Sequence record: PZ386971.1
Direction: 5' to 3' (one strand)
From: a phage
Length of the DNA: 64,000 bases
Each line of letters begins with the position of its first letter. Within the stretch, counting starts at the first letter, position 1. Shown piece after piece: positions 4,560 to 58,028 of this stretch. Below the pieces are notes generated by a model. That model was not told the origin of the DNA. It worked only from the letters and a program-made list of their open reading frames with translations, and did not search any database. Made by a program: the position numbers and the translations under genes.

Positions 4560-4587
4560 TTTACTTCTTCAATAACTCACGTATAAT
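4560..4587 (+). promoter_or_regulatory. Early sigma70-type promoter (-35 TTTACT, 16 bp, -10 TATAAT), cassette A copy 1
   Basis: TTTACTtcttcaataactcacgTATAAT then conserved leader cataagcag..caacttgaaa and AGGAACTATATCATG. Confidence 0.55.
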
Positions 4588-4635
4588 TCTAAACATAAGC
4601 AGTACGACACCAACTTGAAACGAAGGAACTATATC

Positions 4636-4992
4636 ATGACCAAGACCGAAATTAACGCTATCCTGAAAGAAATCGGCCTCTGCAACCTGAAACGCCGCGT
4701 CAATCCTTACCAGCCCGCAAAGCCAGTACGCGACAGCCAGGGAAAGATGATAAAAGGGATCTACTGTGCAGATGTTGGCCCAATGACTGTGACCAGTCCA
4801 CACATTGACAGATTTAACGCTATTGTTGAGGAGTTTTGTGGTAAGGTTCTGGGTGAACTAGCTAATGATTTATGCTCCCCAGATACCAAAGTTGTAGCTT
4901 TCGGGAGCCACCTCGTCACATTCCACCTCACCAGCTTCCGTGCCCACGGTGATTATCATGTGTATTATGCTCAGGTTAGCATTCGCAAATAG
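4636..4992 (+). CDS. Hypothetical protein (118 aa)
   Basis: ATG at 4636 preceded by AGGAACTATATC; the track's MKRRNYIM N-terminus is an artefact of an in-frame TTG in the leader. Confidence 0.5.
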   Translation: MTKTEINAILKEIGLCNLKRRVNPYQPAKPVRDSQGKMIKGIYCADVGPMTVTSPHIDRFNAIVEEFCGKVLGELANDLCSPDTKVVAFGSHLVTFHLTSFRAHGDYHVYYAQVSIRK

Positions 4993-4998: not shown

Positions 4999-5022
4999 AC
5001 CCCGCTGAGGCGGGGTTTAGTT
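4999..5022. terminator. Bidirectional terminator hairpin between convergent genes
   Basis: accccgcTGAGgcggggt flanked by T/A runs, between the + ORF ending 4992 and the - gene ending 5017. Confidence 0.5.
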
Positions 5023-6801: not shown

Positions 6802-6882
6802 AATAAATATCCTCACTTTGGAGTATTTTAACCCCCATTTATTTCAAAACTAAATATTTACACTATTCAGAGGAGAACGACC

Positions 6883-9710: not shown

Positions 9711-10379
9711 ATGATGAAACTGTTGCGTGAGATCACTGCGATAGGGAAAGACCTTCAGATTGGTGAAGCGGCCACGGCTACTGGCGGCAAAGCCATGTAC
9801 ATCGAAGGTCCATTCGTGATGTGTAACCAGGTGAACCGTAATGGTCGCAACTACGATCTCCAAAAGGTGGGTATCCCTGCTGTCGAAGCATACGACAAAG
9901 AGTATATCCAGGATCGTCGTGCAATCGGTGAACTCAAGCATCCGGATTATCCTTTCCCCGATATCGAACACGCTGCACTCAAAACCGAATCTTTGCGCTG
10001 GGAAGGCACCAACGCTATCGGTCGAGCGCGGATCCTGAATACACCGAAAGGTCAGATCATTCGTGCTCTGGCTGAAGCAGACTTCAACCTGGCCGTGTCT
10101 ACACGTGGCCTTGGTGAGACCAAGTCAGTGAACGGCTATGATGACGTTCAACCCGGCTTTATGCTCACTGCTGTTGATGCAGTCGACCGTCCTTCTGGAC
10201 AAGTTTGTTATGTAAAGGCTGTGAGCGAATCTGTGGAATGGCAGCTTGATGAATCTTCAGGAATCTGGGTTCCTAAGGACATTAAGGGGCATGTGGTCGA
10301 TTCATTGGTGAAAACCAATATTCAGTTAGAAGACGACTTCCTGCGCCGCCTCGATATCGCATTGAAACATCTGGGCTGA
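9711..10379 (+). CDS. 21: Prohead core protease (T4 gp21-like)
   Basis: YIEGPFVMCNQVNRNGRNYD / GELKHP / STRGLGE / TAVDAV align with T4 gp21 YIEGIFLQAEVVNRNKRLYP / GELNHP / SSRGLGS / VGVDAV. Confidence 0.9.
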   Translation: MMKLLREITAIGKDLQIGEAATATGGKAMYIEGPFVMCNQVNRNGRNYDLQKVGIPAVEAYDKEYIQDRRAIGELKHPDYPFPDIEHAALKTESLRWEGTNAIGRARILNTPKGQIIRALAEADFNLAVSTRGLGETKSVNGYDDVQPGFMLTAVDAVDRPSGQVCYVKAVSESVEWQLDESSGIWVPKDIKGHVVDSLVKTNIQLEDDFLRRLDIALKHLG

Positions 10380-10388
10380 ATTCAGCCT

Positions 10389-10398
10389 CACTAAATAC
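10389..10398 (+). promoter_or_regulatory. Late-promoter-like motif CACTAAATAC
   Basis: Variant of T4 TATAAATA placed 27 nt upstream of the scaffold ATG; same motif upstream of several other late genes. Confidence 0.35.
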
Positions 10399-10424
10399 TG
10401 AAAATCGTTCAGAAGGAAACAATC

Positions 10425-11276
10425 ATGAAACCTGAATTGCAAAAACTGTTTGAGGGCGTTAACGGCCTCAGCACCGACTTCCTGGATAAAGTGTCTGGTC
10501 TGCTGGAATCTAAAGTAGAAGCCGCTCGCCTGACCGCTATTCAAGAAACCGAAAACGCTGCCAATATTGAGCGCCTGCGTCTGGTTGAAGCTCATCAGGC
10601 TGAGATTGCTCAGCTGAAAGAGTCTCACTTGATGGAAATTGCGACCAAAGTCGATGGCTTCCTGAACGCGGTTGTAGAAGAGTGGGCTAACAAGAACGCT
10701 CCTGCCATCGACGCTCAGATCAAACGTGAAGCGGCTGAAAATCTGCTGGCTGGCCTGACTGGTGTTCTGAAAGAAGCTGGTATCAACTTTGCCACCGACG
10801 AAAACGGCCAGATCGCTGCGCTGACTGCCCGCCTGACCGAAGCAGAACGACGTGCTGCGATTGCCGAAAGCGAAAACCGTCAAATCAAAGAAGCCGCGAA
10901 TGCGACTCTGCGTGACTCTGTGATCGCCCGTATCTGTGAAGGTATGGTCGACACCAAGAAAGCAACGGTTGTCAATCTGCTGGAAGCTGTGCAGTTCACC
11001 ACCGAAAGCGAATTCGCTTCCCGCGTACACACCTTCCGCAACCTGGTAGAAGGTAAGTCCGTGAAGAAAGAAGGCGATGACGATGACGATGACTTCCAAG
11101 ACAAAGTCGGCGGAAAAGACGGCGATGACGACAACAAAGATGTTAAAGCCGAAGGCAAAAAGCCTAAGAAAGAAGGCGATGAAGATGACGATGAAGATGA
11201 AACAGACAAAGAGCTGAAAGAATCTATCAAGCGTCAGTTGGCCGACTATAATCGTCGCTTCGGCATCAACGGCTAA
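10425..11276 (+). CDS. 22: Prohead scaffold protein (T4 gp22-like)
   Basis: 283 aa, alpha-helical and charge-rich with acidic tail (KEGDDDDDDFQDK...DEDDDEDE); between protease and major capsid gene. Confidence 0.7.
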   Translation: MKPELQKLFEGVNGLSTDFLDKVSGLLESKVEAARLTAIQETENAANIERLRLVEAHQAEIAQLKESHLMEIATKVDGFLNAVVEEWANKNAPAIDAQIKREAAENLLAGLTGVLKEAGINFATDENGQIAALTARLTEAERRAAIAESENRQIKEAANATLRDSVIARICEGMVDTKKATVVNLLEAVQFTTESEFASRVHTFRNLVEGKSVKKEGDDDDDDFQDKVGGKDGDDDNKDVKAEGKKPKKEGDEDDDEDETDKELKESIKRQLADYNRRFGING

Positions 11277-11367
11277 TTTTAGCAGCCACAGCCCTCGAAA
11301 GGGGGCTTGATTTTGAACTACTAAGTAATTTCAACTTAACTGAATATCAATGTAAGGAATGACCATC

Positions 11368-12693
11368 ATGGCTAAGAAACTTGTTACCGAACAAATGCGC
11401 GAGCAGTGGCTGCCAGTTCTTCAGAAAGAATCTGAAAGCATCCAGCCGCTTTCTGCCGAAAACGTTGCCGTCCGTCTGCTGCAAAACCAGGCTGAGTGGA
11501 ACGCCAAAAACCTGGGCGAATCCGACGCTCCTGGCTCCGTGAACGCCTCTGTGGGCAAATGGCAGCCAGTCCTGATCGACATGGCCAAACGTCTGGCTCC
11601 GGTCAACATCGCGATGGACTTCTTCGGCGTTCAGCCGCTGTCTGGTCCTGACGGTCAGATCTTTGCTCTGCGTGCTCGCCAGGGCATTTCAGACGGCGGA
11701 TCCAACACCCAACATTCCCGTAAAGAACTGTTCATGCAGGAAGCTGATTCTGGCTACTCTGGTGACGACACTGCTCAGGCTGGCGACCCATCTGGCTTTA
11801 CCCAGACTGAGATCGAAGGTTCCGGCGCTGCCACCACCACCATCGGTAAAGGCATGTCAACTTCCGACGCTGAACTGCTGGGCACCACCACTAACCCATG
11901 GGCACGTGTTGGTATCACCGTTCAGAAAGCAACCGTGACTGCGAAGTCTCGCGGCCTGTACGCTGACTACAGCCATGAACTGCGCCAGGACATGATGGCG
12001 ATCCACGGCGAAGACGTTGACAGCATCCTGTCCGACGTGATGGTAACTGAAATTCAGGCAGAGATGAACCGTGAGTTTATCCGCACCATGAACTTCAGCG
12101 CAGTACGCTTCAAAAAATTCGGCACCAACGGTATCGTAGATATCTCCACTGACATCTCCGGTCGTTGGGCGCTGGAAAAATGGAAGTACATGACTTTCAT
12201 GCTGGAAGTCGAAGCGAACGGCATCGGTGTTGACACCCGTCGTGGTAAAGGCAACCGTGTTCTGTGCTCCCCGAACGTAGCATCCGCTCTGGCGATGTCC
12301 GGCATGCTGGATTATGCTCCGGCGCTGCAGGAAAACACCAAGCTGGCGATTGATCCGACTGGCCAGACCTTCGCTGGTGTGCTGTCTAATGGTATGCGTG
12401 TCTACATCGACCCGTATGCAGTAGCAGAGTACATCACCCTGGCATACAAAGGCGCAACCGCGCTGGATGCTGGTATCTTCTTCGCCCCATACGTTCCGCT
12501 GGAGATGTACCGCACCCAGGGTGAAACCACCTTCGCTCCACGCATGGCGTTCAAGACCCGCTACGGGATTTGTGCCAACCCGTTCGTTCAGATCCCAGCG
12601 AACCAGGATCCACAGGTCTATGTGACTGCGGATGGTATCGCCAAGGACACCAACGTGTATTTCCGCAAAGGGTTAATTAAGGGACTTTTCTAA
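11368..12693 (+). CDS. 23: Major capsid protein (T4 gp23-like)
   Basis: GVQPLSGPDGQIFALRA vs T4 GVQPMNSPTGQVFALRA; GVLSNGMRVYIDPYA...AYKGATALDAGIFFAPYV...FKTRYGI vs T4 GVLGGKYRVYIDQYA...GYKGPNEMDAGIYYAPYV...FKTRYGI; start at ATG 11368 with AAGGAA SD. Confidence 0.95.
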   Translation: MAKKLVTEQMREQWLPVLQKESESIQPLSAENVAVRLLQNQAEWNAKNLGESDAPGSVNASVGKWQPVLIDMAKRLAPVNIAMDFFGVQPLSGPDGQIFALRARQGISDGGSNTQHSRKELFMQEADSGYSGDDTAQAGDPSGFTQTEIEGSGAATTTIGKGMSTSDAELLGTTTNPWARVGITVQKATVTAKSRGLYADYSHELRQDMMAIHGEDVDSILSDVMVTEIQAEMNREFIRTMNFSAVRFKKFGTNGIVDISTDISGRWALEKWKYMTFMLEVEANGIGVDTRRGKGNRVLCSPNVASALAMSGMLDYAPALQENTKLAIDPTGQTFAGVLSNGMRVYIDPYAVAEYITLAYKGATALDAGIFFAPYVPLEMYRTQGETTFAPRMAFKTRYGICANPFVQIPANQDPQVYVTADGIAKDTNVYFRKGLIKGLF

Positions 12694-14011: not shown

Positions 14012-14040
14012 GTTTAATTCTTCAATAAACCCCGTATACT
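14012..14040 (+). promoter_or_regulatory. Early promoter, cassette A copy 2 (-35 GTTTAAT, -10 TATACT), -35 lies in the loop of a tacgggg..ccccgta stem
   Basis: Followed by the same conserved leader tcattccataagcagcacaaca...gaaa and AGGAAATATATCATG as at 4588 and 48392. Confidence 0.5.
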
Positions 14041-14089
14041 TCATTCCATAAGCAGCACAACATTGACTCTGAAATGAAGGAAATATATC

Positions 14090-14419
14090 ATGACTTTTAA
14101 AGGCTTTGTAGCATTCGACGCAACCAAAACCAACGTGCTGAGCAACCCGCAGCTGGAAACCATCTCTGAAATGCGCCAGTGGGTGATGGGGATCACTGGC
14201 CATCAAACCCGAAAGGATCTTGAAGCGGAGTTCTATATCGAACCTGCTGAAGTCTTCTTCAATCGCCCTGAAGATGAACCGTTCATCCGTCAAGACTTGG
14301 ATGACAATGATATCACTCTCGCGATCTTCTCTGAAGCAAAAGCGGCTATGATCGTGGACGGCCTGTGTGATGAGTCCTTCACATACGATGAATACTGCGA
14401 TCAGTGTCAGGATCTGTGA
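14090..14419 (+). CDS. Hypothetical protein (109 aa)
   Basis: ORF downstream of cassette A copy 2. Confidence 0.5.
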   Translation: MTFKGFVAFDATKTNVLSNPQLETISEMRQWVMGITGHQTRKDLEAEFYIEPAEVFFNRPEDEPFIRQDLDDNDITLAIFSEAKAAMIVDGLCDESFTYDEYCDQCQDL

Positions 14420-24565: not shown

Positions 24566-25789
24566 ATGAAAGATAAACCATATGACATCCCATATTGCGG
24601 TGTCCGTGAAACCAAAATCAAATCAGCCCATCCTATGTTAAGTTCATTCCACCGTCAGCTGGCATATGAATGGATGAGGGATCGTTATGCGATACATGTC
24701 AAGAAGGACGTGCAATGCCTTCCAGCGCCATGGACGGATAATCCGGTATTACGCCAAGTCAAGTTTTGTAACGTGCGGAGAGAGCACGATAGACAGTCTC
24801 GAAATTTGATCAATAATATCATCCTCAATCAGGATCTCACGCTATCTGACAAAATGTTCAACTGTGTATTGTTCCGCATGTACAACATGTGGGAACCTAT
24901 ACAGGCTTTGGGTGGTCCATGGACGATCGAAGAATTCGGAAACATAAATCTTGAATGGTGTCGAAGTGTTCTTCAGGAATTCGAATCTAAAGGTGGCAAA
25001 GTTTTCACCAATGCGTTTAATACAGGCGGTCTGAAACAATGCCTGGCTTTCCCCGAACTAGTTGTCAACCACAAGGAGCAGCGCTTCGGTGGGATGATGG
25101 TGAATCTGATCTGTAAAGACGGTTCAACCCAGAACATGGATTACAAGGAAGCCAAGGCCATCGCTGAAGCAGAGCCGGACTTCTACACCATCGAAGGTTG
25201 GGAACCGTACATGCCAATGCGTGTCATCCGCTCCCTGAAGGCATTCGTCAACAAACACCCTCATTACTTTGATCGCCTCAGGGAATTTAGCCGTCCCGAC
25301 TCTGTTTACCAGGCGATGTATGACGACATTGAGGGGCTTGGACCATTCTTGGCATACCAGATTTGGGTTGATTTTACATACATCGATGAATATCCATTCA
25401 GTGAAAACCACTTCACTATCGCTGGTCCAGGTTGCCGTGCTGGTATCGATCTGTTATTTTTGGACAAGGACGGCATGACGCATGAAGAATGCATATTCTG
25501 GGTTCGTGATCATCAAGATCAATTGTTCGCTCAGTATGGGTATAAACGTAATGAATTTTGGTCGGCAGAAGAACCGGAAGATCGTTGCATGAATGTTATG
25601 CAGCTGGAGAACATGTTCTGTGAACTTCAGAAATATACCCGCTGTGTTGAGGCAGTGATGCGCGGGGAGAAACCTCGAGGAAAGGTGGGGTATGACGGGA
25701 ATGGTAGTGCGTATAAGCAACGTTGTGATGAAGTCGTGCTCAAACGTGGTTCCGTCAATTTGCTGGACCGTTTGAAGAAACCTGAATAA
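24566..25789 (+). CDS. Hypothetical protein (407 aa), orphan enzyme-like
   Basis: Long clean ORF with RBS; no recognisable P-loop, methyltransferase or ligase motif. Confidence 0.55.
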   Translation: MKDKPYDIPYCGVRETKIKSAHPMLSSFHRQLAYEWMRDRYAIHVKKDVQCLPAPWTDNPVLRQVKFCNVRREHDRQSRNLINNIILNQDLTLSDKMFNCVLFRMYNMWEPIQALGGPWTIEEFGNINLEWCRSVLQEFESKGGKVFTNAFNTGGLKQCLAFPELVVNHKEQRFGGMMVNLICKDGSTQNMDYKEAKAIAEAEPDFYTIEGWEPYMPMRVIRSLKAFVNKHPHYFDRLREFSRPDSVYQAMYDDIEGLGPFLAYQIWVDFTYIDEYPFSENHFTIAGPGCRAGIDLLFLDKDGMTHEECIFWVRDHQDQLFAQYGYKRNEFWSAEEPEDRCMNVMQLENMFCELQKYTRCVEAVMRGEKPRGKVGYDGNGSAYKQRCDEVVLKRGSVNLLDRLKKPE

Positions 25790-25903: not shown

Positions 25904-27922
25904 ATGTCAGATTTTAAGCCCTTCGCAGTAGCTGTCAACAATAACGTGCTGGCCATGTCAGCAACTGGTCTGTTCATGACCAACATCGATAAAGATGCTC
26001 TGTGGGATCTGTATCTGTCTTCTTTCCCTGCTGGCACTAACCCGCTTTATCGTGAGCGTACCGAGCACGACTGCACCTGCTGTAAACAATTCATCCGTAA
26101 TATCGGCGGTGTGGTCACCATCGACTCCGACCTGAACGTGATCTCTATCTGGGATAACATTCAGCTGGGTAACGAATACGACGTTGTCGCTGCGGCGCTG
26201 TCAGCATATGTTAAGCAGCACGCAATCGTCGACGTGTACTTCAACGACACCAAGAAAGTTGGTGTTGAGTCGAATCACGAAATGAAAGACGGTATTGCCC
26301 GCACCTACAACCACTTCCACACCGACCTGCTGGGTAGCTATGTTCTGCGGGCAGATACCATCGCTTCTAAGAAGGGCGAAATCCGCCAGGCGATTGAAGT
26401 GTTTGAGCGCGGTCTGCGCGAACTGTCTCTGGAATCGGCTGAAATCGTTCTGGAATTGATTGACCAGAATTCTCTGTATCGCGGTGAAGAGCACAAAGCG
26501 GCAGTGCAGGCGTTCGTGGTGAACAAGACCCTGTACGAACAAACTGCAGAAGAGAAACGCGCTCTGTGGGCTTGGCGCACTGGCTACCGTGCAAACGGTC
26601 ATACCCCTCACGGCATTCGTAATACCGTGATTGGCTCTCTGCTGGTAGACCTCAATGAAGGCCGGGATTTGGAAACCGCCGTGAAGTCCTTTGAAGCCAA
26701 AGTCGCCCCGACGAACTACAAGCGCCCAACCGCGCTGGTCACGAAGTCGATGATTGAAAACGCGCAGAAAGAAGTCGAAGCGCTGGGTCTGACTGATTCA
26801 CTGGGTCGCCGTTATGCCGTGTATGACGATCTGACCATCAACAACGTTCTGTTCGCCGATCTGGCAGCTCAGAAGAAGATGGACCCGTTTGCTCAGCTGG
26901 CGTCTGAAGTGAAGACTCCGACCAAGTCCCTGGACAAGGTTGAAGAGATCACGATCGACGACTTCCTGGCCAACGTGTTGCCAAAGGCGCATTCCCTGGA
27001 AGTGCTGGTCGAAAACTCTCACATTGGCAACCTGATGTCCCTGATCGCTCCGGCTACCGCAGGCGCTCCTAACCTGTTCAAATGGAACAACGGTTTCAGC
27101 TGGTCATACAACGGTGAAGTGGCCGACTCCATCAAAGAGCGCGTGAAGACAGCAGGCGGCAACGTTGACAGCTTCCTCCGGGTGTCACTGGCTTGGCATA
27201 ACAACGACGACCTGGATCTGAGCATGAACGATCCTCTTCACAACCACGTATATTTTCGCAACCGTCGTTCGACAACTGGCGCAACTCTGGACATCGACAT
27301 GAACGGTATGGACGGCATTGACCCAAATCGCCGTCCGGTGGAGAACATCTTCTTCAGCGATGAACGCAAGCTACGTGACGGGAATTATGAGTTCTATGTC
27401 ACCAACTTCAACAAGCGTGAAACCTGTGACGTTGGTTTCGAAATCGAAGTCGAATACAAAGGCCAGACCAAGCGCTTCTCACACCCTGGCCTGGGTAACA
27501 AAGATCGCACGTTGGCTGTTGTGGTTCAGGTTCGCGCTGGTCAGGTGGTTGACATCAGTTCTACCCTGAAAGACGACGCTCGCTCTCAGGAAATCTGGGG
27601 CATCAAGACCTCCGTCTTCCAGAAGGTACAGCTGGTTCTGAACTCACCAAACCATTGGGACGGCGAGCAGACGGGCAACAAGCACGTGTTCTTCATCCTG
27701 GAAGGTTGTGCTAACCCTGTCGGCACCCGTGGTTTCTATAACGAATATCTGAAGCCGGAACTTGATAAACACCGCAAGGTTTTTGAAATGTTAGGTGGTA
27801 AGATTAAAGTACAGCCAAGCAATGAGCAGCTGTCCGGTCTGGGCTTCTCTACCACCCAACGCAACCACGTGTTCGTGAAGGTGAGCGGTTCGTTCAACCG
27901 CACTGTGAAAGTTGTGTTCTAA
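25904..27922 (+). CDS. Hypothetical large protein (672 aa)
   Basis: Clean ORF preceded by AGGAAGATTACATCATG; Cys cluster HDCTCCKQF near N-terminus; no recognisable catalytic motif. Confidence 0.6.
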   Translation: MSDFKPFAVAVNNNVLAMSATGLFMTNIDKDALWDLYLSSFPAGTNPLYRERTEHDCTCCKQFIRNIGGVVTIDSDLNVISIWDNIQLGNEYDVVAAALSAYVKQHAIVDVYFNDTKKVGVESNHEMKDGIARTYNHFHTDLLGSYVLRADTIASKKGEIRQAIEVFERGLRELSLESAEIVLELIDQNSLYRGEEHKAAVQAFVVNKTLYEQTAEEKRALWAWRTGYRANGHTPHGIRNTVIGSLLVDLNEGRDLETAVKSFEAKVAPTNYKRPTALVTKSMIENAQKEVEALGLTDSLGRRYAVYDDLTINNVLFADLAAQKKMDPFAQLASEVKTPTKSLDKVEEITIDDFLANVLPKAHSLEVLVENSHIGNLMSLIAPATAGAPNLFKWNNGFSWSYNGEVADSIKERVKTAGGNVDSFLRVSLAWHNNDDLDLSMNDPLHNHVYFRNRRSTTGATLDIDMNGMDGIDPNRRPVENIFFSDERKLRDGNYEFYVTNFNKRETCDVGFEIEVEYKGQTKRFSHPGLGNKDRTLAVVVQVRAGQVVDISSTLKDDARSQEIWGIKTSVFQKVQLVLNSPNHWDGEQTGNKHVFFILEGCANPVGTRGFYNEYLKPELDKHRKVFEMLGGKIKVQPSNEQLSGLGFSTTQRNHVFVKVSGSFNRTVKVVF

Positions 27923-27966
27923 ACCTGATTTGAAATTGTAACCCATTCATCATTGAGGATAGTAAA

Positions 27967-28338
27967 ATGTTTGATAAAGCAACCCGTATGAAACTGCGCT
28001 TCGAGTCTAACAAAGGCCTGTTGTCTGTTGAGCAGGTCTGGGACCTGAGCCTGACTGCCCTGAACGAAATGGCGAAAGGTCTGAGCCGTCAGGTGAAAGC
28101 AGCAGAAACCGATGAAGAAGATTTCATTGGTACCAAAAGCAACGTTGACTCCGAACTGCAGCTGCGCTTCGACGTTGTCAAGCACATCATCGGCGTTAAG
28201 CTGAAAGAACGTGACGACAGCAGAGACGCGGCAGAGCGTAAGGCGAACAACCAGATTATCCTGGAGCTGATCCAGCGTAAGAAACAGCAAGAGCTGGAAA
28301 GCAAATCTGTTGAAGAACTGGAAGCACTCCTGAAATAA
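27967..28338 (+). CDS. Hypothetical charged helical protein (123 aa)
   Basis: ORF with GAGGAT SD; followed by a terminator hairpin. Confidence 0.5.
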   Translation: MFDKATRMKLRFESNKGLLSVEQVWDLSLTALNEMAKGLSRQVKAAETDEEDFIGTKSNVDSELQLRFDVVKHIIGVKLKERDDSRDAAERKANNQIILELIQRKKQQELESKSVEELEALLK

Positions 28339-28361
28339 TCTGTCTGACCTCAGCCTGAGCA

Positions 28362-28388
28362 ACCCCGCCATGTGCGGGGTTTCTTTTG
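28362..28388 (+). terminator. Rho-independent terminator
   Basis: ccccgcCATGTgcgggg then TTTCTTTT. Confidence 0.55.
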
Positions 28389-28398
28389 GACAAAGAAT

Positions 28399-28773
28399 AT
28401 GAAACCTGTTATATGCGATTACTGTGGCCTCCCAGCCGAATTCGTCGGTGGTGATGTTCTCTACCCTCATCACCCTGACCTCCGCAATCTGAAGTTCTGG
28501 GTGTGCACTCCATGTGATGCCCGTGTCGGTTGCCATGCCCATGGCGACGGCAGACAACCTTTGGGAAGGATGGCGAATGCCGCTCTCCGTGCTGCTAAGC
28601 AAAAAGCCCATAGATCGTTTGACCCATTATGGAAAAGCGGAGAGAGGAGCAGGAGCGACGCTTACAGTTGGCTGGCGCATAAGCTGGGGATTAAGAAGCG
28701 CGATTGCCATATCGGCTTGTTCGATATCGACATGTGCCGTAAAGTAGTGGAGGTCTGTAAACAAATATCATAG
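28399..28773 (+). CDS. Zinc-ribbon protein (125 aa)
   Basis: CDYC...(n)...CTPCDARVGCHAH Cys/His cluster. Confidence 0.5.
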   Translation: MKPVICDYCGLPAEFVGGDVLYPHHPDLRNLKFWVCTPCDARVGCHAHGDGRQPLGRMANAALRAAKQKAHRSFDPLWKSGERSRSDAYSWLAHKLGIKKRDCHIGLFDIDMCRKVVEVCKQIS

Positions 28774-28781
28774 GAGAACAC

Positions 28782-29654
28782 ATGACAACTCGCACTGGCA
28801 TCAAACTCACTCCTGAAGTCCTGAAGTCACATATCGCTGAGGTGATTTACGAAGACCGCGAAGTCGGCGGTCACCGGGCTATCACTTGTCATTTCAAGAT
28901 GGATAACGGCTTCGTCGTTCACGGCACCAAGCCCAGCACATCCATAGACCCGGCCAACTTCGATGAAGCCCTGGGCAAAGAGATTTCCTACAATAACACC
29001 TTCGACCAGCTGTGGCAGCTGGAGGCGTACCGGGCGCTTGTTGAACAAGATCTGTTGGCCAAAGCCACGGAAACGGCAGAGATCCGGATCGATCAATACG
29101 CTGTTGAACGTAGCGCCCTCTGTCCGGCCTATCACCTCGGCTTCAATGTGATGATTCAGGAAGTGATGTTCAGAGCGGAAAATGGCGAGCGCTTCTTGGC
29201 GTCTTTCATTTGTGGGCCGGATGACATGGAACTTGTTGTTGAATCTCACAACGCCAAATCTCGTAAGGCTGTTAGTGATTTCCTGCGCGCCAACTCCAAA
29301 CTCGATCTCACTTGTTCGCCATTGGTTCTGCGCATCGCCAAGATTTGTCATGAAGCCAACCGCGCATACTGCAAGTCTATTGGTGACGACTCTCAACTGC
29401 CTTGGGAACAATCTCCGGCCTGGCAGCGTGAGAGCGCTTGCAAAGGTGTTATCTTCCATCTCACTGGTGATCGTAAGCCCAGCGAATCGCATGAGAGATG
29501 GATGGCGGAGAAGGAGTCTGAGGGATGGGTATATGGCCCAGTCAAAGACCCTCAGACCAAGCAACACCCTTGCATAGTTCCGTATGGAGAACTCCCGGTA
29601 CAACAACGCTCCAAAGATTATATTTTCAAATCCATTGTAGACTCCTTTAAATAA
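28782..29654 (+). CDS. Gp49-like N-terminal domain fused to a C-terminal RyR-domain
   Basis: N-terminus HRAITCHFKMDNGFVVHGT...DPANFDEALGKEISYNNTFDQLWQLEAYRAL; C-terminus HERWMAEKESEGWVYGPVKDPQTKQHPCIVPYGELP resembles the RyR repeat. Confidence 0.5.
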   Translation: MTTRTGIKLTPEVLKSHIAEVIYEDREVGGHRAITCHFKMDNGFVVHGTKPSTSIDPANFDEALGKEISYNNTFDQLWQLEAYRALVEQDLLAKATETAEIRIDQYAVERSALCPAYHLGFNVMIQEVMFRAENGERFLASFICGPDDMELVVESHNAKSRKAVSDFLRANSKLDLTCSPLVLRIAKICHEANRAYCKSIGDDSQLPWEQSPAWQRESACKGVIFHLTGDRKPSESHERWMAEKESEGWVYGPVKDPQTKQHPCIVPYGELPVQQRSKDYIFKSIVDSFK

Positions 29655-29690
29655 GCTCTGAATAATATTTCAACCTGTCAATAATATAAT

Positions 29691-29719
29691 GCCCGGTTAT
29701 ATTCAATCGGGCATTTTTA
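29691..29719 (+). terminator. Terminator-like hairpin after the RyR-domain gene
   Basis: gcccg-(12 nt loop)-cgggc followed by ATTTTTA. Confidence 0.4.
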
Positions 29720-29728
29720 TTATATTAA

Positions 29729-29759
29729 TTGGCATCAATACCGCCTGTCGTAATATAAT
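29729..29759 (+). promoter_or_regulatory. Sigma70-like promoter (TTGGCA ... TATAAT) upstream of the vWA gene
   Basis: TTGGCA at 29729 and TAATATAAT at about 29751-29759 (16-19 bp spacer depending on hexamer choice). Confidence 0.4.
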
Positions 29760-29804
29760 AGTCCCATGTTAAAATAGTTAGGAAATATAACTCACGAGAG
29801 CCTG

Positions 29805-29981
29805 ATGACCGACAACAAATTAAAACGTGTCGGACTTGATTGTCTTGACAATTCATTCCGCCCCAGTGATGTTCTGGTCGCCCAAATGGAAAACAACCGG
29901 GATTTCATTGAAACTATGCTGGAGAACGCCGACGCGAACTCCAAACACTCCAAAGCCCAAAAAGGTCAAAACGATGATTGA
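29805..29981 (+). CDS. Possible small ORF (58 aa) overlapping the vWA start
   Basis: Not in the track (under 60 aa); ATG with GAGAG upstream; reads MTDNKLKRVGLDCLDNSFRP...; hand-indexed coordinates. Confidence 0.25.
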   Translation: MTDNKLKRVGLDCLDNSFRPSDVLVAQMENNRDFIETMLENADANSKHSKAQKGQNDD

Positions 29982-32175
29982 ATCATTAACATTTAAGAAT
30001 GCGGTTGCGACCGTTGCGCCGTCTAACCATGTAATCGTTGTGGATATCTCCGGTTCCATGTATCGTTCACTTCCAGAAGTCCGTAAGCATCTGAAGGAGA
30101 ACCTGCCTTCCCTGGTGAAACCCGAAGATACTGTGAGCATCCTTTACTTTTCATCTCGCGGTGATTTCGGAACGGTATTTGCCGGACGCCAGATCGGTGT
30201 CGCATCTGACCTGAGCGAGCTGAATAAGCTGATCGATCGCTTCCTGCAACCGTCCGGATGTACTGGCTTTGTTGAGCCGTTGAAACTGGCGATGGACACT
30301 GCTCGTAGCCTGAAGAAGCCTGGCTATGTCAACAACCTGGCGTTCATGACTGACGGGTATGACAACTGCTGGCGTACCAACGAAATCTTACTGGTTGCTG
30401 AGACCCTGCCATTTGCTTTCGATAACATTACTTTCATCGAATACGGCTGGCACTGTAACCGCGAACTGCTGGCGCAGATGGCCGAACGCTCCGGTGCGAC
30501 CCACGTGTTTGCCGAAGGTCAGACCGAATACCAGACCGAACTAGAAAACGTGCTGAAGTCATCAGTGCCGAAGGTGAAAGTTGATGTCCCAGTCATCTAC
30601 ACCCATGCCATCTACGTCGAAAACGGTGTGGCAACAGTACTGGCGGTGCAGGACGATGACTCTCACCCGGTCGGCTATGTGAGCATCCCTGAGAGCGTCA
30701 CCAAGCTGTGGGTTGTAAACCCTAACATGATCGACCAGCTTGATGCGCTGGCGGACATCCAGGCGGCATACGTGCTGGCGTTCTACGGCGTACACATCAT
30801 GGACGCAGACCTGGTATGGGCTGCGCTGAAGAAGACGGGCGACGTTCGCTTCATCAAACAGTACAGCAACTGCTTTACCAAGCAGGACTACTCCAACATC
30901 AAGAACGATCTGGTACAGGCGATTGTTGACGACCAGCTGCGCGGCGTTGACGGTATTGACTATGACCTGGTTCCGGCTGAAGATGCGACGACCGTCGTTG
31001 ACGTGCTGACGTATCTGGCTGAAGCTGGCGTGTCTGTTGCCACCAAACATCCTATGTTCTCCTACAAGAGCATTGGTCGCGGTACTGTGCAGAAAGCGGA
31101 CGATACCGAAGACAAACTGGCAGAACAGATCGCGAATGCTCAGTCCAAAGAAGAGCGTAAAGCCCTGGCTCTCAAGCTGGCTGAGCACGAAGAATGGACG
31201 CCGTCGTTTGAACCTGCCAACGATCTGGGCGTTATCTCAATCAGCGATCTGGTCTACAACTCTGAGCGCCCGAACATCAGTGTGCGCACTATTCAGCATG
31301 GTACTGTGACTGTCCCTGAGTTCGCACAGAAGAAGTTTGGTCTGCCTGAAGAACTGGATACTTTCCAGTGGCGCAACTACACCATCGTCAAAGATGGTAT
31401 CATCAACGTGAAGACCCTGCCGTTCAAGGCTGATATCGAAGTTGTACAGAAGCTGATCGAAATGGGCGTCCACGTGTTTGGTGGACCGGAAGTGTTTGTC
31501 CTGAACCTGGAAAGCGTACCGCTGGTCAACCGCGCCATGGTCAAGAACATCAGTGCTGCTCAGTTCTTTGCGGATAATGTCCGTTTGGAAGCCCTGAAAG
31601 GCAAGCAGAAGGTGCTGAAGTTCTATCGAGACGCCCTGGTTGGTAAAGGTAACGCCAAAGGCCTGGCAGTACAGTACGGCGCTGAGGCGGCCGAGTTCCT
31701 GTCCTCCTACGGCATCCGCGATTACGGCTTCTCACCGAAGACTGAGACCAAAGAGTCTACCGACTTCTACATGAGCCGGGAGCTGAACGTGAAGATCGCT
31801 GGCGCTTCATCTCTACCGTCTATCGCAGCGGTACAGAAGAAGATTGCCGAGAACAAGAAACTCAATGCTGGTGACTTGTTCATCGCCAATGCTCTGAAAG
31901 AGTACGAAGCATTCGTGAAGTCTCCTATGATCACTGCCGTGCCTGAAGCCTTACAGAAACAGCTGATCGAAAACTGGATCGACGCTGCTGCCAAGGCGAC
32001 CATCACCGAAGTCCGTGCCCTGAACAAGACACTGTCTAAAGTGGTGTATGGTATCGTTGCTGGCCACGGCTGGTTCACCGACCTCGACCTGGAAGAGTCC
32101 ACCATGGAAGTTGAAGTGGATGGCGTGAAGTACAAGGTCACTGCCGAACTGACAGAGAAAGAAATCAAAATCTAA
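29974..32175 (+). CDS. von Willebrand factor A (vWA) domain protein, 733 aa
   Basis: VIVVDISGSM (MIDAS DxSxS), later FMTDGYDN; N-terminal 49 aa of the track ORF are low-complexity and likely untranslated, start ATG 29974 with AAAGG SD. Confidence 0.7.
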   Translation: MIESLTFKNAVATVAPSNHVIVVDISGSMYRSLPEVRKHLKENLPSLVKPEDTVSILYFSSRGDFGTVFAGRQIGVASDLSELNKLIDRFLQPSGCTGFVEPLKLAMDTARSLKKPGYVNNLAFMTDGYDNCWRTNEILLVAETLPFAFDNITFIEYGWHCNRELLAQMAERSGATHVFAEGQTEYQTELENVLKSSVPKVKVDVPVIYTHAIYVENGVATVLAVQDDDSHPVGYVSIPESVTKLWVVNPNMIDQLDALADIQAAYVLAFYGVHIMDADLVWAALKKTGDVRFIKQYSNCFTKQDYSNIKNDLVQAIVDDQLRGVDGIDYDLVPAEDATTVVDVLTYLAEAGVSVATKHPMFSYKSIGRGTVQKADDTEDKLAEQIANAQSKEERKALALKLAEHEEWTPSFEPANDLGVISISDLVYNSERPNISVRTIQHGTVTVPEFAQKKFGLPEELDTFQWRNYTIVKDGIINVKTLPFKADIEVVQKLIEMGVHVFGGPEVFVLNLESVPLVNRAMVKNISAAQFFADNVRLEALKGKQKVLKFYRDALVGKGNAKGLAVQYGAEAAEFLSSYGIRDYGFSPKTETKESTDFYMSRELNVKIAGASSLPSIAAVQKKIAENKKLNAGDLFIANALKEYEAFVKSPMITAVPEALQKQLIENWIDAAAKATITEVRALNKTLSKVVYGIVAGHGWFTDLDLEESTMEVEVDGVKYKVTAELTEKEIKI

Positions 32176-32181
32176 TCCAAC

Positions 32182-32205
32182 GGGCGGGGCAACCCGCCTT
32201 TCTTT
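32182..32205 (+). terminator. Rho-independent terminator with GNRA loop
   Basis: ggcgggGCAAcccgcc then TTTCTTT. Confidence 0.55.
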
Positions 32206-32217
32206 GGGAGAAGTAGC

Positions 32218-32541
32218 ATGAGCAGTAAACCAACATATGTTGAAGTCATGCGTCATCTGGCTCAGTACGCCACTGACAATCTGAACTTGGATCTGTGGCG
32301 TGACGATGACAAGCGCAAATTGCTGGACGACGTGGCATCTCAGAACGAGGACGCCCTAGACAAGCTGGCTGGCCTCCGCACCAAGAAAGACCTCGGCGGT
32401 GATGAACTGGACGCTATCGAAATTGTAATGGACCTCGAAGAAGAGTTTCAGGTCGAAATCGACGATGGTTGGCTGGGCAGTAAAGGTGATGACCCGACCA
32501 TGGGTGAACTCGCTGAACTCGTGGTTGCCCTGCGCAAATAA
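32218..32541 (+). CDS. Acyl carrier protein homolog with Ser-to-Glu at the phosphopantetheine site
   Basis: DLGGDELDAIEIVMDLEEEFQVEIDD aligns with E. coli ACP [26 protein letters not shown]; the conserved DSL Ser is Glu (DEL). Confidence 0.7.
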   Translation: MSSKPTYVEVMRHLAQYATDNLNLDLWRDDDKRKLLDDVASQNEDALDKLAGLRTKKDLGGDELDAIEIVMDLEEEFQVEIDDGWLGSKGDDPTMGELAELVVALRK

Positions 32542-32547
32542 CAGAAG

Positions 32548-32572
32548 TCCCCAACAAACGTTGGGGATTTTT
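32548..32572 (+). terminator. Terminator hairpin tccccaacAAAgttgggga + T-run (copy 1)
   Basis: Identical 26-bp element recurs at 32904. Confidence 0.55.
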
Positions 32573-32583
32573 ACTTTTAGGGG

Positions 32584-32612
32584 TTTACTTCTATAATGTA
32601 AATGCGTATTAT
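32584..32612 (+). promoter_or_regulatory. Early promoter (-35 TTTACT, 17 bp, -10 TATTAT)
   Basis: gggGTTTACTtctataatgtaaatgcgTATTAT; same -35 family as cassette A. Confidence 0.45.
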
Positions 32613-32661
32613 TGAATTCATAGAGCGGGGCGTTCCTGTTCATTGAAAGAAGGTATACATT

Positions 32662-32886
32662 ATGTCTGCTATATCATGTGTTGTTGATCTCACCCCATTT
32701 TGCCTGAACAATATTGCTAACCCTAAATTGGTCTTGTTTAAGGATCCCTCTAATTTCTGCTGGCTGGCAAGTTGTGATACCAACAACGGGCGTCGTGCTG
32801 TTTGGGAGTTTCCCGCAACTGATGAAGGCAGAATTTCTGCTATAAGAAAATTAGAACTAGAAAATTCAAGCCGAGAAATTAAATAG
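32662..32886 (+). CDS. Hypothetical small protein (74 aa)
   Basis: ORF flanked on both sides by duplicated terminator-promoter cassettes. Confidence 0.4.
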   Translation: MSAISCVVDLTPFCLNNIANPKLVLFKDPSNFCWLASCDTNNGRRAVWEFPATDEGRISAIRKLELENSSREIK

Positions 32887-33319: not shown

Positions 33320-33826
33320 ATGACCGATCAACAAATTCAAGATTTATTTTACCTCGTCCATGATAAGTCCCACATCATGCGCCCCGGTACTGTTTCCCCT
33401 GCCGTCCGTGATCTGGTGCAAGAATTGCGCGAACCACAGACGACCACACTTTATCGCGGGTTGCCTAAAGAGGACGTTGCGCGTTTAGAGATGATGTTTG
33501 AACGAGGCGACATGTTCCAGACATGGGATTCTTGCCTTAGCTTCAGTGAACTGAAGCATGTGGCCAAAAAATTTTCTAAATCGTACGGAACCCAAGCTGT
33601 TGCCCGCATTTGTTACAAACATCGAAACAGACTCCCGGAGGGGCTTAATGTCTATGGTTCTCTAGAAAAATTTGTGAACAAAGGCGATGAATCAGAAATG
33701 GATATGCTGGACTTGGCGTCCATGGAGAAAGAATGGATATTCTGCCAGCCTCGCGTCATACCAGTTTCAAGAAAAATGGCAACAGACGGCACGATGGTTT
33801 TTACCGTATCACTTGTTACCCTATAA
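33320..33826 (+). CDS. Hypothetical protein (168 aa)
   Basis: ATG preceded by CAGGAACTATACC. Confidence 0.5.
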   Translation: MTDQQIQDLFYLVHDKSHIMRPGTVSPAVRDLVQELREPQTTTLYRGLPKEDVARLEMMFERGDMFQTWDSCLSFSELKHVAKKFSKSYGTQAVARICYKHRNRLPEGLNVYGSLEKFVNKGDESEMDMLDLASMEKEWIFCQPRVIPVSRKMATDGTMVFTVSLVTL

Positions 33827-38924: not shown

Positions 38925-40643
38925 GTGACAGCATTCAACCAATATACCAAGGCGCTTGACGGCGTCGGACCAGTCAGCATAGACCGCATCAAGTCTCTTG
39001 CCACTGAGTTCTTCCCGTATGACACCGCCAACCCCGGCCAGATGGAATGCATCGTTGAAGCCATTGATGCCCTTGTGAATAAGAAATTCAAACACGTGAT
39101 CATCGAGGCTCCGACTGGTGTAGGTAAATCCCTCATCGGCACTACCATCCATAATGTGCTTCGCCATTTGGTTCTTGAGCACAACCCGTATGGTCAGTTC
39201 CGCACGTCTATCACGACGCCGACCAAAGGTTTACAGGATCAGTATGCAGCAGAGAAAGCCGTGGCGATAGACATCCTGAAGGGCAAGAAGAACTACCGTT
39301 GCCACATCAGTCCCGACCTATACTACAACGCCATTCAGTGCCGTATGGCATGCCGTGATGGCCACTGTAGTAAGAATCGTTGCCCATATGTTCAGGCGCG
39401 TCGACAGTGGACCGACGTCTCCTCCCTGCGCTGCACCAACGCCGCCATGATGGTGGAGATGTGTACGACGATTTGTATGAAGCCGGAAAACCGTGCCGAT
39501 ATGCTGATCCTTGACGAGTGTCATAAGATGCCCTCTACGCTCCTAGAGCATACTATCATGGAATACAACATAAAGGCTGTGGAAGGGTTGCTTACGATCC
39601 CCGAGGGAGTGCCTATCGTGGAGACCATCAAGGATATCATCATCCGCACAGAGAACTATGAATTGGGCAAGCTGTATTCCCTGTCTGGTGAGATGCATGC
39701 GATATTTGATGAACTACACGGCAAGGTTGAAGCCCTGTTGGAAACTCTTGAAGAACTGGTAGAGGATGAGCGCCTGACTGAAGCCCAGGTGATGAAGCTG
39801 TCTGATATTATTGATAATCTTCACAACCTCAGTGACTACTGCGGTATCATGGGGCAGACCAACGCCAGCACTTTCATCGTACAGGAGAAGGACAAGGGTA
39901 TGATTCAGTTCAAGCCTGTCATCGCCTCTGATGTATCCCAGTTCGGTCTGTTCCGCAAGGGTGACTACCACGTTCACATGTCGGCGACCATCTGCGGGAT
40001 TGACTCGTACGCCCGGTCACTGGGTATCCGCGAGGGTGAGTACCACAAGATACAGATCGGCAACCCTATCCCGATTGAGAACCGGAAAGTCAACTACATG
40101 CCCATCATGAAGATGACAGCGAACATGGGTGACTACGAGATGAAGAAGCTGGCTGAATACGTGGATGAAATTATCGCGTTCCACCCTGGGCAGTCTGGCA
40201 TCATTCACACAGTCAGTTATGACCGCGCCCTGGCTCTACAAAAGTTCAGTAAGTACCGGAATATGATTCACGTTCCTCGTACTCGTAAGGCTCTGATGGA
40301 CATCATGGAAAACGCGTTCAGGACGAAGACGCCTTGTGTCATCGCCAGTCCGGCCATGGAAGAGGGGTATGACTTCAAAGGCGATTATAGTCGATTTCAG
40401 ATCTTGATCAAAGTGCCATACGATTACCTTGGTGATCCTCTGGTGGCCCACGTCAACAGTGTGGACCCATCGGCGTACTTCAGGATGGCGGTACTGCGTA
40501 TCGTTCAGATGTGTGGGCGTTCGGTCAGGGGCGTGAATGACTGGGCTGCGACGTACATCCTTGATTCTTCTTTTGAATCACTGATGATGCGCAACCCAGA
40601 GTTCTTCCCCGCTTGGTTCACTGATGCCGTGTTTGAGGTTTAG
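38925..40643 (+). CDS. DinG/XPD-like Fe-S SF2 helicase
   Basis: 572 aa; APTGVGKS Walker A; four-Cys cluster CHISPDLYYNAIQCRMACRDGHCSKNRC; DECH box. Confidence 0.75.
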   Translation: MTAFNQYTKALDGVGPVSIDRIKSLATEFFPYDTANPGQMECIVEAIDALVNKKFKHVIIEAPTGVGKSLIGTTIHNVLRHLVLEHNPYGQFRTSITTPTKGLQDQYAAEKAVAIDILKGKKNYRCHISPDLYYNAIQCRMACRDGHCSKNRCPYVQARRQWTDVSSLRCTNAAMMVEMCTTICMKPENRADMLILDECHKMPSTLLEHTIMEYNIKAVEGLLTIPEGVPIVETIKDIIIRTENYELGKLYSLSGEMHAIFDELHGKVEALLETLEELVEDERLTEAQVMKLSDIIDNLHNLSDYCGIMGQTNASTFIVQEKDKGMIQFKPVIASDVSQFGLFRKGDYHVHMSATICGIDSYARSLGIREGEYHKIQIGNPIPIENRKVNYMPIMKMTANMGDYEMKKLAEYVDEIIAFHPGQSGIIHTVSYDRALALQKFSKYRNMIHVPRTRKALMDIMENAFRTKTPCVIASPAMEEGYDFKGDYSRFQILIKVPYDYLGDPLVAHVNSVDPSAYFRMAVLRIVQMCGRSVRGVNDWAATYILDSSFESLMMRNPEFFPAWFTDAVFEV

Positions 40644-48362: not shown

Positions 48363-48391
48363 TTTACTTCTTCAATATCCTTCCCTATACT
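48363..48391 (+). promoter_or_regulatory. Early promoter, cassette A copy 3 (-35 TTTACT, 17 bp, -10 TATACT)
   Basis: Preceded by hairpin aggggcTTTTgcccct and followed by leader tcattccataagcaacacaacaccaacttgaaa and AGGAACTACACCATG. Confidence 0.5.
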
Positions 48392-48439
48392 TCATTCCAT
48401 AAGCAACACAACACCAACTTGAAAAGCAGGAACTACACC

Positions 48440-48715
48440 ATGAAAATTATCCTCGACGCATATATCCGCCACGGTCAGAAATACCTGATGGCCAAGGTTT
48501 ACGACGGCGAAGAATTGATCCACGCCCAGACCGCCCCAGCTGCCCAGCTGCGAGAAATCATGTCACGCGACTTCCCTGGTGTTGAAATGGTAGAGCCTAC
48601 CAACCAGGCCGAAGTAGACAAAGAGTGGGAGCGCGAATGGAGTCCAGCGGCTATCGCTCGGGCTGAAAAGAATTGGTCTAACCGCGAAAACGCAAACCGC
48701 CCTTTCCGCCGTTAA
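48440..48715 (+). CDS. Hypothetical small protein (91 aa)
   Basis: ORF downstream of cassette A copy 3. Confidence 0.45.
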   Translation: MKIILDAYIRHGQKYLMAKVYDGEELIHAQTAPAAQLREIMSRDFPGVEMVEPTNQAEVDKEWEREWSPAAIARAEKNWSNRENANRPFRR

Positions 48716-57185: not shown

Positions 57186-58028
57186 ATGCAATCTGCCACC
57201 AAAGTTGTAAGTAAGAAGCCAGCGGGTAAGACCAAGTCAGCACGTAAGAAAGAGACAATTCAGAAAGAAGATGACTGGATGAAGTTCTCTAAAGGTGACT
57301 TCAGAATCGCTCCATTCAATGGCCTCTCAGAAAATCAGAACCTCGCGTATCAATCTGCTCTTGAAGAAAACCTCACCATCGCAATCGGTCCGGCAGGCAC
57401 AGGTAAATCGTATTGTGGTGCCTCAGCCGCCGCCAAGCTCCTGATCGATAAAGTGGTCAGCAAGATCGTCATCACGCGCTCTCCGCTGCCAACAGGCCAG
57501 ACTGCAGGCTTCCGCCCTGGCGACACATACGAAAAACTGATGCCATATCTGATGCCCCTGATTCAGACGCTGAAGAAGGTGCTGAAGACTGACACAGGTA
57601 GCGACGGTTTCTTCAACTATCTGTGGGAGAAGCGGATCATTGAGATCCAGGATCTGGAGACCATCAAGGGGATGACCTTCGACGACACCTTCCTGATCAT
57701 TGAAGAAGCGCAGGAATGTGATATGGAGCAGCTGAAGAACCTACTGACCCGCGCATCCGACTCGACTTATATCTTTGTCAACGGTGACATCAAACAGTCC
57801 AACAAGCGCCTGCGCGACAGCGCCCTTGAAAAGTACGTCAGTTCCTTCCGCGACTTCAACGCCAAGCTGGAGGCCGGAACCCTGAAGATCGATGGTATTG
57901 ACGTCGGTGATGAGTACCCTGAATGGGTTCAGCCGTTCAGTATCATCGAGTTCGACAAGTCTGACCGCAACGGGCGCGGCGACTTCACCCGCCTGATGCT
58001 GGAAGTCAACGATCTGTACGACATTTAA
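57186..58028 (+). CDS. phoH: PhoH-like ATPase
   Basis: GPAGTGKS Walker A and IIEEAQE Walker B-like segment in a 280-aa protein, as in PhoH family. Confidence 0.8.
   Translation: MQSATKVVSKKPAGKTKSARKKETIQKEDDWMKFSKGDFRIAPFNGLSENQNLAYQSALEENLTIAIGPAGTGKSYCGASAAAKLLIDKVVSKIVITRSPLPTGQTAGFRPGDTYEKLMPYLMPLIQTLKKVLKTDTGSDGFFNYLWEKRIIEIQDLETIKGMTFDDTFLIIEEAQECDMEQLKNLLTRASDSTYIFVNGDIKQSNKRLRDSALEKYVSSFRDFNAKLEAGTLKIDGIDVGDEYPEWVQPFSIIEFDKSDRNGRGDFTRLMLEVNDLYDI

Follow-up and report, generated by a model that had tools for sequence, protein, structure and literature searches.

A vWA-domain gene in the replication region of an Ackermannviridae-type phage represents a widespread, essentially phage-restricted family with a conserved metal site and a C-terminal module of novel predicted structure

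Sequence record PZ386971.1 provides a 64,000-nucleotide stretch of phage DNA, referred to here as the window, and the subject of the present analysis is a gene within it that encodes a 733-residue protein with a von Willebrand factor A (vWA) domain. The gene is located within an extended plus-strand run of genes for replication and nucleotide metabolism, among them those for the clamp, clamp loader, RegA, MazG, 5-hmdU DNA kinase, helicase, RNase H and late sigma factor; the features in its immediate vicinity are collected in Table 1. Region 28300-32700 is matched at the DNA level by 225 phage records, with 95% identity to Salmonella phage vB_CECAV_050 (Agtrevirus) and likewise to Escherichia phages PC3 and PH4, and around 92% to the kutterviruses Marshall and Maynard. 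Since these matches are to Agtrevirus and Kuttervirus phages, the window is assigned on DNA identity to an Ackermannviridae (Vi01-like) phage of Agtrevirus/Kuttervirus type. Its vWA gene is simply the ortholog of a core gene that already carries the annotation 'VWA domain-containing protein': Maynard gp87 (AGY47809.1), CBA120 orf143 and Sajous1 gp185 are the same gene, with protein identities of approximately 82-97% across the Ackermannviridae orthologs, DNA identity of about 92% in the case of Maynard, the same synteny and about the same length. These orthologs are likewise conserved hypothetical proteins. Gene order around the vWA gene is the same in Maynard, vB_CECAV_050, CBA120, the Dickeya phage Ds9CZ and a Klebsiella phage.

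Table 1. Positions of the vWA gene, its predicted domains and the neighbouring genes and signals in the window (aa, amino acids; nt, nucleotides; ORF, open reading frame; ACP, acyl carrier protein; MIDAS, metal ion-dependent adhesion site; pI, isoelectric point).
Feature	Position	Strand	Remarks
Gp49_66 and RyR fusion gene	28782..29654	+	290 aa; PF13876 and PF02026
Intrinsic terminator closing the upstream unit	29688..29715	+	11-bp stem, then T-run
Sigma-70-like promoter candidate	29729..29759	+	TTGGCA-16 nt-TAATAT; overlapping TATAAT at 19 nt
Conserved acidic 58-aa ORF	29805..29981	+	phrog_11447, E 2.2e-44
vWA gene, 733 aa	29974..32175	+	PF00092 VWA
vWA domain, residues 1-196	29974..30561	+	MIDAS D-I-S-G-S at 30043-30057
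Small β-sandwich packed on the vWA domain, residues 200-248	30571..30717	+	
Family-specific C-terminal module, mixed α/β, residues 252-733	30727..32175	+	
GC-rich hairpin with interrupted U-run, after the vWA stop	32182..32199	+	from scan; -17.6 kcal/mol, z -2.07
ACP-like protein, 107 aa, pI 4.2	32218..32541	+	PF00550

An initial reading of the DNA, made from its letters alone and called here the first-pass annotation, had identified a 733-residue vWA-domain gene, and both the ORF and its assignment are confirmed, PF00092 matching residues 20-184 with 29.4 bits against a cut-off of 23.8. The MIDAS is complete, consisting of D24-x-S26-x-S28, T97 and D127, in agreement with the clear motif originally reported, save that the stretch reads VIVVDISGSM and not VVVDISGSM. 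Conservation was assessed over the window protein and 248 homologs, 249 full-length sequences in all, and each of these five residues is conserved in 242-249 of them. Since the site is retained while the median identity of the set to the query is 36%, it is evidently under selection, and the alignment strongly indicates that it is for binding a ligand through the metal that the vWA domain has been selected. An AlphaFold2 model built from a 41-sequence alignment has a mean predicted local distance difference test (pLDDT) score of 87.3 and gives the N-terminal boundaries listed in Table 1; its N-terminal fold is Rossmann-like α/β, in agreement with solved vWA domains.

The first-pass annotation had also remarked on a large unassigned C-terminus, and some 480-530 residues do indeed lack a family assignment. 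When the C-terminal 484 residues were modelled apart, the prediction had a pLDDT of 89.5 and a predicted TM-score (pTM) of 0.80, and included long strands and a 39-residue helix. A fold search of BFVD returned only members of the family itself as relatives of this module, while Pfam searches with 22 family members and a sequence-profile search of the PDB produced nothing for it. As modelled, the module resembles no known structure. It also contains the best-conserved stretch of the whole protein, residues 516-615, with a mean identity of 50% compared to 47% for the vWA domain, and its near-invariant residues include R432, N434, D474, K546, D597, Y599 and W700.

The family to which the gene belongs is both large and diverse. 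Profile phrog_2426 (PHROG 2426) covers residues 1-733 of the window protein with its positions 2-736 of 736 (E 0). A word-indexed search produced 144 proteins at E <= 0.001, on contigs of up to 452 kb; nearly all of the 120 listed are full-length (approximately 675-790 residues), with identities down to 32%. By tblastn, full-length homologs are present in 504 phage records, the carriers comprising all genera of Ackermannviridae, T4-like Straboviridae (Slopekvirus Miro and Enterobacter, Cronobacter and Citrobacter phages), Pseudomonas phage pf16, Rhizobium T4-likes and Bacillus phage PBS1, and full-length homologs also occur on jumbo contigs of 300-500 kb. When only the C-terminal 484 residues were used as a profile, the matches numbered 1,404 representative clusters (50% identity), with E below 1e-30 for 898. 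Among the best 150 clusters, around 135 have the module at the end of a protein of 680-823 residues, behind some 190-330 N-terminal residues, and the remaining 15 or so are shorter, with little beyond the module. Since these clusters mostly share the same layout, the architecture of vWA domain, β-sandwich and C-terminal module of about 480 residues is largely fixed and old.

Outside phages, a single strict peptide pattern found only eight loci of the family in 185,579 species genomes, most of them on contigs of metagenome-assembled genomes. Two copies are in isolate chromosomes, those of Novimethylophilus kurashikiensis (L096, 7140-9287) and Achromobacter anxifer (L098, 7137-9332). In both, a RelA/SpoT-type HD (HD_4) hydrolase is encoded about 5 kb from the vWA copy, and this hydrolase is 63-66% identical to that of a phage-like soil contig (L003, vWA copy at 10001-12166), suggesting that the two chromosomal copies are phage-derived islands. 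The family is essentially phage-restricted. Within the Vi01-like phages, a CoreGenes analysis placed the vWA protein among a core of 114 genes (PMC10892097). This core status, and the occurrence of homologs far beyond the Ackermannviridae, do not bear out the original proposal of an acquired accessory module.

The first-pass annotation stated that no AAA+ or MoxR partner is present, and this has held up on a wider search. The window contains just three ORFs of at least 150 residues with a Walker-A motif: a PhoH-like ATPase (57186-58028; PF02562, E 1e-38), a DUF7487-containing ORF (5017-6816, minus strand) and ORF 38925-40643, which was not scanned for domains and is taken, from its relative position, as the counterpart of the helicase annotated in Maynard. 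No MoxR-type ATPase was found among these, none is annotated in the approximately 120 kb of vB_CECAV_050 that was inspected, and no MoxR gene adjoins the vWA gene in any of 78 related loci. The further statement that such an absence is unusual for vWA proteins is not supported by the nearest structural matches, which are ArnB, the 4fx5 protein, ITIH, Rpn10, TFIIH p44 and Sec23/24. None of these is known to be MoxR-dependent, and for ArnB, ITIH, Rpn10, TFIIH p44 and Sec23/24 the lack of an AAA+ partner is the norm.

Comparison with these proteins and with other vWA systems shows where the phage family stands apart. The head of the phage protein resembles ArnB of Sulfolobus acidocaldarius (PDB code 8s05, chain B; paralog 5a8j), itself similar to the Sec23/24 trunk and β-sandwich core. 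ArnB, however, has around 380 residues and is partnered by the FHA/zinc-ribbon protein ArnA and by kinases, while the phage protein carries an extra module of about 480 residues and has no FHA, kinase or phosphatase neighbours. The phage family's C-terminal module is likewise missing from a vWA protein of Catenulispora acidiphila solved by structural genomics (4fx5, chain A) and from the ITIH heavy chains (6fpy, 9c4f), which are secreted eukaryotic proteins. In the MoxR-associated systems RavA-ViaA, NorQ-NorD, CobS-CobT and BchI-BchD the vWA domain is C-terminal and an AAA+ gene is adjacent, whereas the vWA domain of the phage protein is N-terminal. The β-barrel and ring-forming DNA-binding core that follows the vWA domain in Ku70/Ku80 was not found in the 733-residue protein.

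With a pI of 5.1, a maximum Kyte-Doolittle value of 1.45 over 19-residue windows and no hydrophobic segment, the protein is expected to be soluble and cytoplasmic. We favour a reading in which the window gene is a copy of an old, phage-restricted, single-gene family (PHROG 2426), the product of which would be soluble, essentially non-virion and AAA-independent, binding a partner through its metal site. By analogy with other MIDAS-containing vWA domains, the partner would supply an Asp or Glu side chain that fills the coordination shell of the bound Mg2+ ion, and this contact would clamp the partner with no AAA+ remodeller involved. The C-terminal module would contribute a family-specific activity or a second binding surface. 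Since the hosts of the family span Gammaproteobacteria, Rhizobium, Pseudomonas and Bacillus, the partner is probably one that is conserved, whether among the hosts or in the replication machinery of large phages. We put the probability of this general picture, that of a soluble, AAA-independent MIDAS clamp with activity or binding added by the C-terminal module, at roughly one half; for any specific target the figure would be much lower. That the protein is aimed at a host complex, as first suggested, is possible. A literature search covering function, transcriptomics and escape mutants returned nothing on the family beyond annotation and the Sajous1 proteomics.

Several points weigh against this reading. 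One vWA peptide spectrum has come from purified virions, and two automated annotations give it a tail or minor-tail label. No specific ligand is backed by experiment or by partner prediction. The many conserved polar residues of the C-terminal module may point to an enzymatic rather than a scaffolding role. Lastly, for the early or middle expression considered below, only gene position and a weak promoter match can be cited.

The first two of these points would favour a minor virion protein, or an internal protein ejected so as to enter the host with the DNA, and the labels 'tail protein' and 'minor tail protein' are of this kind. The spectrum in question derives from CsCl-purified virions of Sajous1, in which abundant virion-associated proteins yielded 196-311 spectra, and the ACP-like protein, the clamp loader and thymidylate synthase were all seen at the same level of one spectrum (PMC10892097). 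Because its count equals that of the clamp loader and thymidylate synthase, evidently non-structural contaminants, the data, which show that the vWA protein is made, argue for a lysate contaminant rather than a structural component. Gene position also tells against a place in the virion: in the window the vWA gene lies amid replication genes and behind a sigma-70-like promoter, and in Miro and pf16 it is found within clusters of small genes transcribed away from the adjacent baseplate/tail genes. We consider a virion role very unlikely.

The signals upstream of the gene are consistent with its having its own terminator-bounded transcription unit, as had been proposed. The terminator hairpin noted in the first pass is well supported by an RNA folding energy of -18.4 kcal/mol, a z score of -5.15 and a U-run after the hairpin; its sequence is identical in vB_CECAV_050 and Maynard, and the annotation of the latter has a terminator at that position. 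For the promoter originally described as TTGGCA...TATAAT, the hexamers are present, with TTGGCA at 29729-29734, and the TATAAT -10 element is kept at the equivalent position in CBA120 and Klebsiella phage phi1_146029, in which the flanks have diverged. The spacing between the two is, however, 19 nt, and our promoter scan instead pairs TTGGCA with TAATAT at a spacing of 16 nt (9/12 match). Since comparable sites are only mildly enriched in the region (16 of the 9/12 type observed, 9.2 ± 3.0 expected), the site is weak by itself, and it is best regarded as a putative promoter. Neither does it stand directly before the vWA gene, as had been thought, since the conserved 58-residue ORF intervenes. 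A difference from the 'cassette promoters' used elsewhere in the window does exist at the -35 hexamer, but these too are sigma-70-like (TTTACT-N16-TATAAT, followed by a conserved leader), so that the two classes are less distinct than first described.

The 58-residue ORF was overlooked in the first pass. Its stop and the vWA start share 8 nt (ATGATTGA). Annotations of Maynard, CBA120, Ds9CZ and the Klebsiella phage show an identical overlap, which suggests translational coupling of the two genes. The ORF is confined to Ackermannviridae loci among 78 IMG/VR loci compared. At the other end of the vWA gene, the hairpin following the stop codon is probably a leaky terminator or attenuator. The ribosome-binding site and ATG of the ACP-like gene are within 19 nt of this hairpin and, as there is no room for a promoter of its own, that gene would have to be expressed by read-through. 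The layout thus implies a transcription unit running from the promoter through the 58-residue ORF, the vWA gene and the leaky hairpin to the ACP-like gene. Early or middle expression of the vWA gene would fit its position, its orientation and the sigma-70-like promoter. No TATAAATA motif was found upstream of the vWA gene, although a late-promoter consensus for this phage is not established, and a repeated CTGTCRWTAATATAAT motif considered as a phage-specific promoter was rejected, its count being no higher than chance.

The leader mentioned above is a feature of the window in its own right. Copies of about 47 nt each (TTGAAA..AGGAACTATATCATG), located at 4611, 13273, 14065, 33295, 33854, 48713, 62178 and 62429, abut the start codons of at least eight genes. 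Some are preceded by a TTTACT-N16-TATAAT/TATACT promoter and a conserved spacer of about 40 nt (4560-4640, 14013-14111, 48386-48443). The leader looks like a reused cassette of promoter, 5' untranslated region and ribosome-binding site, and is possibly a site of translational control.

Upstream of the terminator, both domains of the gene first described as a Gp49-like/RyR fusion score above their Pfam cut-offs. PF13876 (Phage_gp49_66) matches residues 9-84 with E 1.4e-11 and 45.1 bits (cut-off 27), and PF02026 (RyR) matches residues 235-279 with E 4e-10 and 40.2 bits (cut-off 27.4), the latter match being partial and covering only positions 27-71 of the 91 in the profile. Orthologs in the same position in CBA120 (241 residues) and a Klebsiella phage (251 residues) have Gp49_66 but not RyR, Dickeya phages retain just a fragment of the gene, with Ds9CZ lacking a full-length copy upstream of its vWA gene, and the RyR part is found on its own in N4-like phages, T5-like phages and actinophages. 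Since the strong terminator separates it from the vWA unit, the gene is assigned to the preceding unit. It is a mosaic and variable upstream neighbour, outside the vWA transcription unit.

These observations bear on the suggestion, arising from the first pass, that the Gp49/RyR, vWA and ACP-like genes form an acquired accessory module acting jointly on a host complex. The three genes are adjacent, the vWA and ACP-like genes are apparently co-transcribed, none of the three is in the T4 core set and the position upstream of the vWA gene is mosaic, all of which such a module might be expected to show. The vWA gene is, however, a core gene of its family of phages and is widespread well outside it; the terminator divides the supposed module; and the Gp49/RyR gene varies independently, RyR being absent from CBA120 and the Klebsiella phage. 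Co-inheritance was examined by comparing the ORFs within 6-10 kb on either side of the vWA gene in 4 metagenomic, 78 IMG/VR and 8 genome loci. In the 78 IMG/VR loci, the 58-residue, ACP-like, Gp49/RyR, DUF3268 and 672-residue-protein genes occur beside the vWA gene almost only in Ackermannviridae, the exceptions being one Gp49/RyR match and one DUF3268 match. As a module, the proposal is largely refuted, and we consider it very unlikely.

The same comparison revealed no universal partner gene: distant loci have only the vWA gene in common, a Pfam scan of the small neighbours in these loci gave no matches, and the genomic context of the gene varies from lineage to lineage. Synteny was seen only at the level of lineages, involving for example the HD_4 hydrolase common to L003, Novimethylophilus and Achromobacter and, in one metagenomic jumbo-phage clade, a protein of about 550 residues with a GT51 transglycosylase-like motif and an N-terminal hydrophobic segment. 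The gene for the latter lies 0.1-2 kb downstream of the vWA gene (loci L057, L059, L064, L066, L069, L073, L074, L079 and L085; L049 also belongs to this set) and is immediately adjacent in four cases; this pairing is lineage-specific synteny and not a family-wide partnership. Profiles of PADLOC-DB, which cover host defence and not anti-defence, gave no match for the vWA, Gp49/RyR, ACP-like, 58-residue or 672-residue proteins, a weak test where counter-defence is concerned.

Within the Ackermannviridae one neighbour, the ACP-like gene, does track the vWA gene: it is present in 272 phage records, almost all of them with names that place them in Ackermannviridae, as against about 270 for vWA homologs at >= 60% identity. 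PF00550 scores 24.8 bits in its product (cut-off 20.8), with the match confined to the vicinity of helix II, and it falls far short of the NCBIfam ACP cut-offs (33.7 against 70.45). The phosphopantetheine serine is absent in all five Ackermannviridae phages aligned, which have GGDELD or GGDDLD where AcpP of Escherichia coli has GADSLD. Since Glu or Asp replaces the carrier serine the protein cannot be a functional carrier, and it is probably an ACP mimic. Neither the absent serine nor the lack of room for a promoter was noticed in the first pass.

That the ACP-like protein, or the 58-residue protein, might be an Ackermannviridae-specific ligand of the MIDAS is a speculation compatible with the reading we favour. 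The Glu or Asp at the carrier-serine site, an exposed position with which ACP helix II begins, would act as ligand to the MIDAS metal, and the resulting complex would mimic or sequester host factors that interact with ACP. Besides the agreement in record counts and the replacement of the serine in 5/5 phages, the vWA and ACP-like genes adjoin in every Ackermannviridae locus inspected with no promoter between them, the ACP-like protein is highly acidic, and the two proteins appear at equal trace level in Sajous1. Against this, all lineages outside the Ackermannviridae have the vWA gene and no ACP-like neighbour, which excludes the ACP-like protein as the ancestral ligand. On balance a ligand of this sort seems rather unlikely.

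A different role again would be in DNA metabolism or counter-defence, the C-terminal module being a new enzyme or inhibitor directed at replication, repair or host immunity and the vWA domain serving for docking. The vWA gene is indeed situated in a replication and nucleotide-metabolism region, 4 kb from the 5-hmdU DNA kinase gene; in pf16 it adjoins topoisomerase II; a DnaB-like helicase, a primase and a DNA polymerase are encoded 5-10 kb upstream in the 452-kb contig; and NAD-salvage, Acb1-like and RelA/SpoT-type HD hydrolase genes are nearby in other contigs. The location of the top-conserved segment in the C-terminal module, with its invariant polar residues, would suit such a role too. 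On the other side, the pI is atypical of DNA binders, neither PADLOC nor Pfam gives a signal, genomic contexts are unlike between lineages, and ViI thymidine hypermodification has been reconstituted with no vWA protein (PMC8989533). We judge a role of this kind unlikely. Participation in thymidine hypermodification itself, considered in view of the kinase gene upstream, was rejected, the published ViI pathway being complete without the vWA protein (PMC8989533).

Other genes of the region merit brief description. The kinase-domain protein (24566-25789, 407 residues; PF18723, 5-hmdU DNA kinase helical domain, E 2.4e-83) is encoded about 4 kb upstream of the vWA gene and is consistent with the 5-NeOmdU thymidine hypermodification pathway of ViI-like phages (PMC8989533). 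It is followed by a 672-residue protein (25904-27922; phrog_1735) without a Pfam match, homologs of which are present at full length in 558 phage records of highly diverse types, including phiCbK, Bacillus BCU4, the 76-kb Stenotrophomonas phage Piffle and Microcystis and Vibrio phages; some of these records bear the label 'DNA-directed RNA polymerase', for which no evidence was seen in the window protein. A minus-strand coding sequence (27919-28611) annotated in vB_CECAV_050 lies opposite two plus-strand ORFs, 27967-28338 and 28372-28773, which have family support from phrog_2018 (E 1.5e-47) and the DUF3268 zinc-finger PF11672 (E 7e-38). The annotations of Maynard and CBA120 have the plus-strand ORFs, and the minus-strand coding sequence has probably been annotated in error. 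About 1.1 kb, or two genes, beyond the downstream end of the vWA operon, a 168-residue protein (33320-33826) shows similarity (E 5.8e-15) to the C-terminal part of phrog_832, 'RNA polymerase ADP-ribosylase', the name under which it is annotated in vB_CECAV_050, and it is possibly a host-takeover enzyme of the Alt/ModA kind.

For the window as such there is no new discovery to report, the vWA gene being already annotated as a core protein. The noteworthy feature is the family, which is large, phage-restricted and distributed from Ackermannviridae of 150 kb to jumbo phages of 450 kb, with an intact metal-dependent binding site and some 480 residues for which a confident predicted structure has no solved match. 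A bolder picture, which we consider tentative though conceivable, would have the C-terminal module as a new fold with its own activity, combined with an AAA-independent MIDAS clamp in a factor by which large virulent phages widely (about 1,400 clusters at 50% identity) take over the host or counter its defences, the serine-less ACP mimic having been recruited as ligand or regulator in the Ackermannviridae. That serine-less neighbour constitutes a second, small puzzle. Ackermannviridae phages serve in biocontrol and therapy against Salmonella, E. coli O157, Klebsiella and Dickeya and, since the vWA gene belongs to the core and the replication region of such phages, functional study of it would be reasonable.

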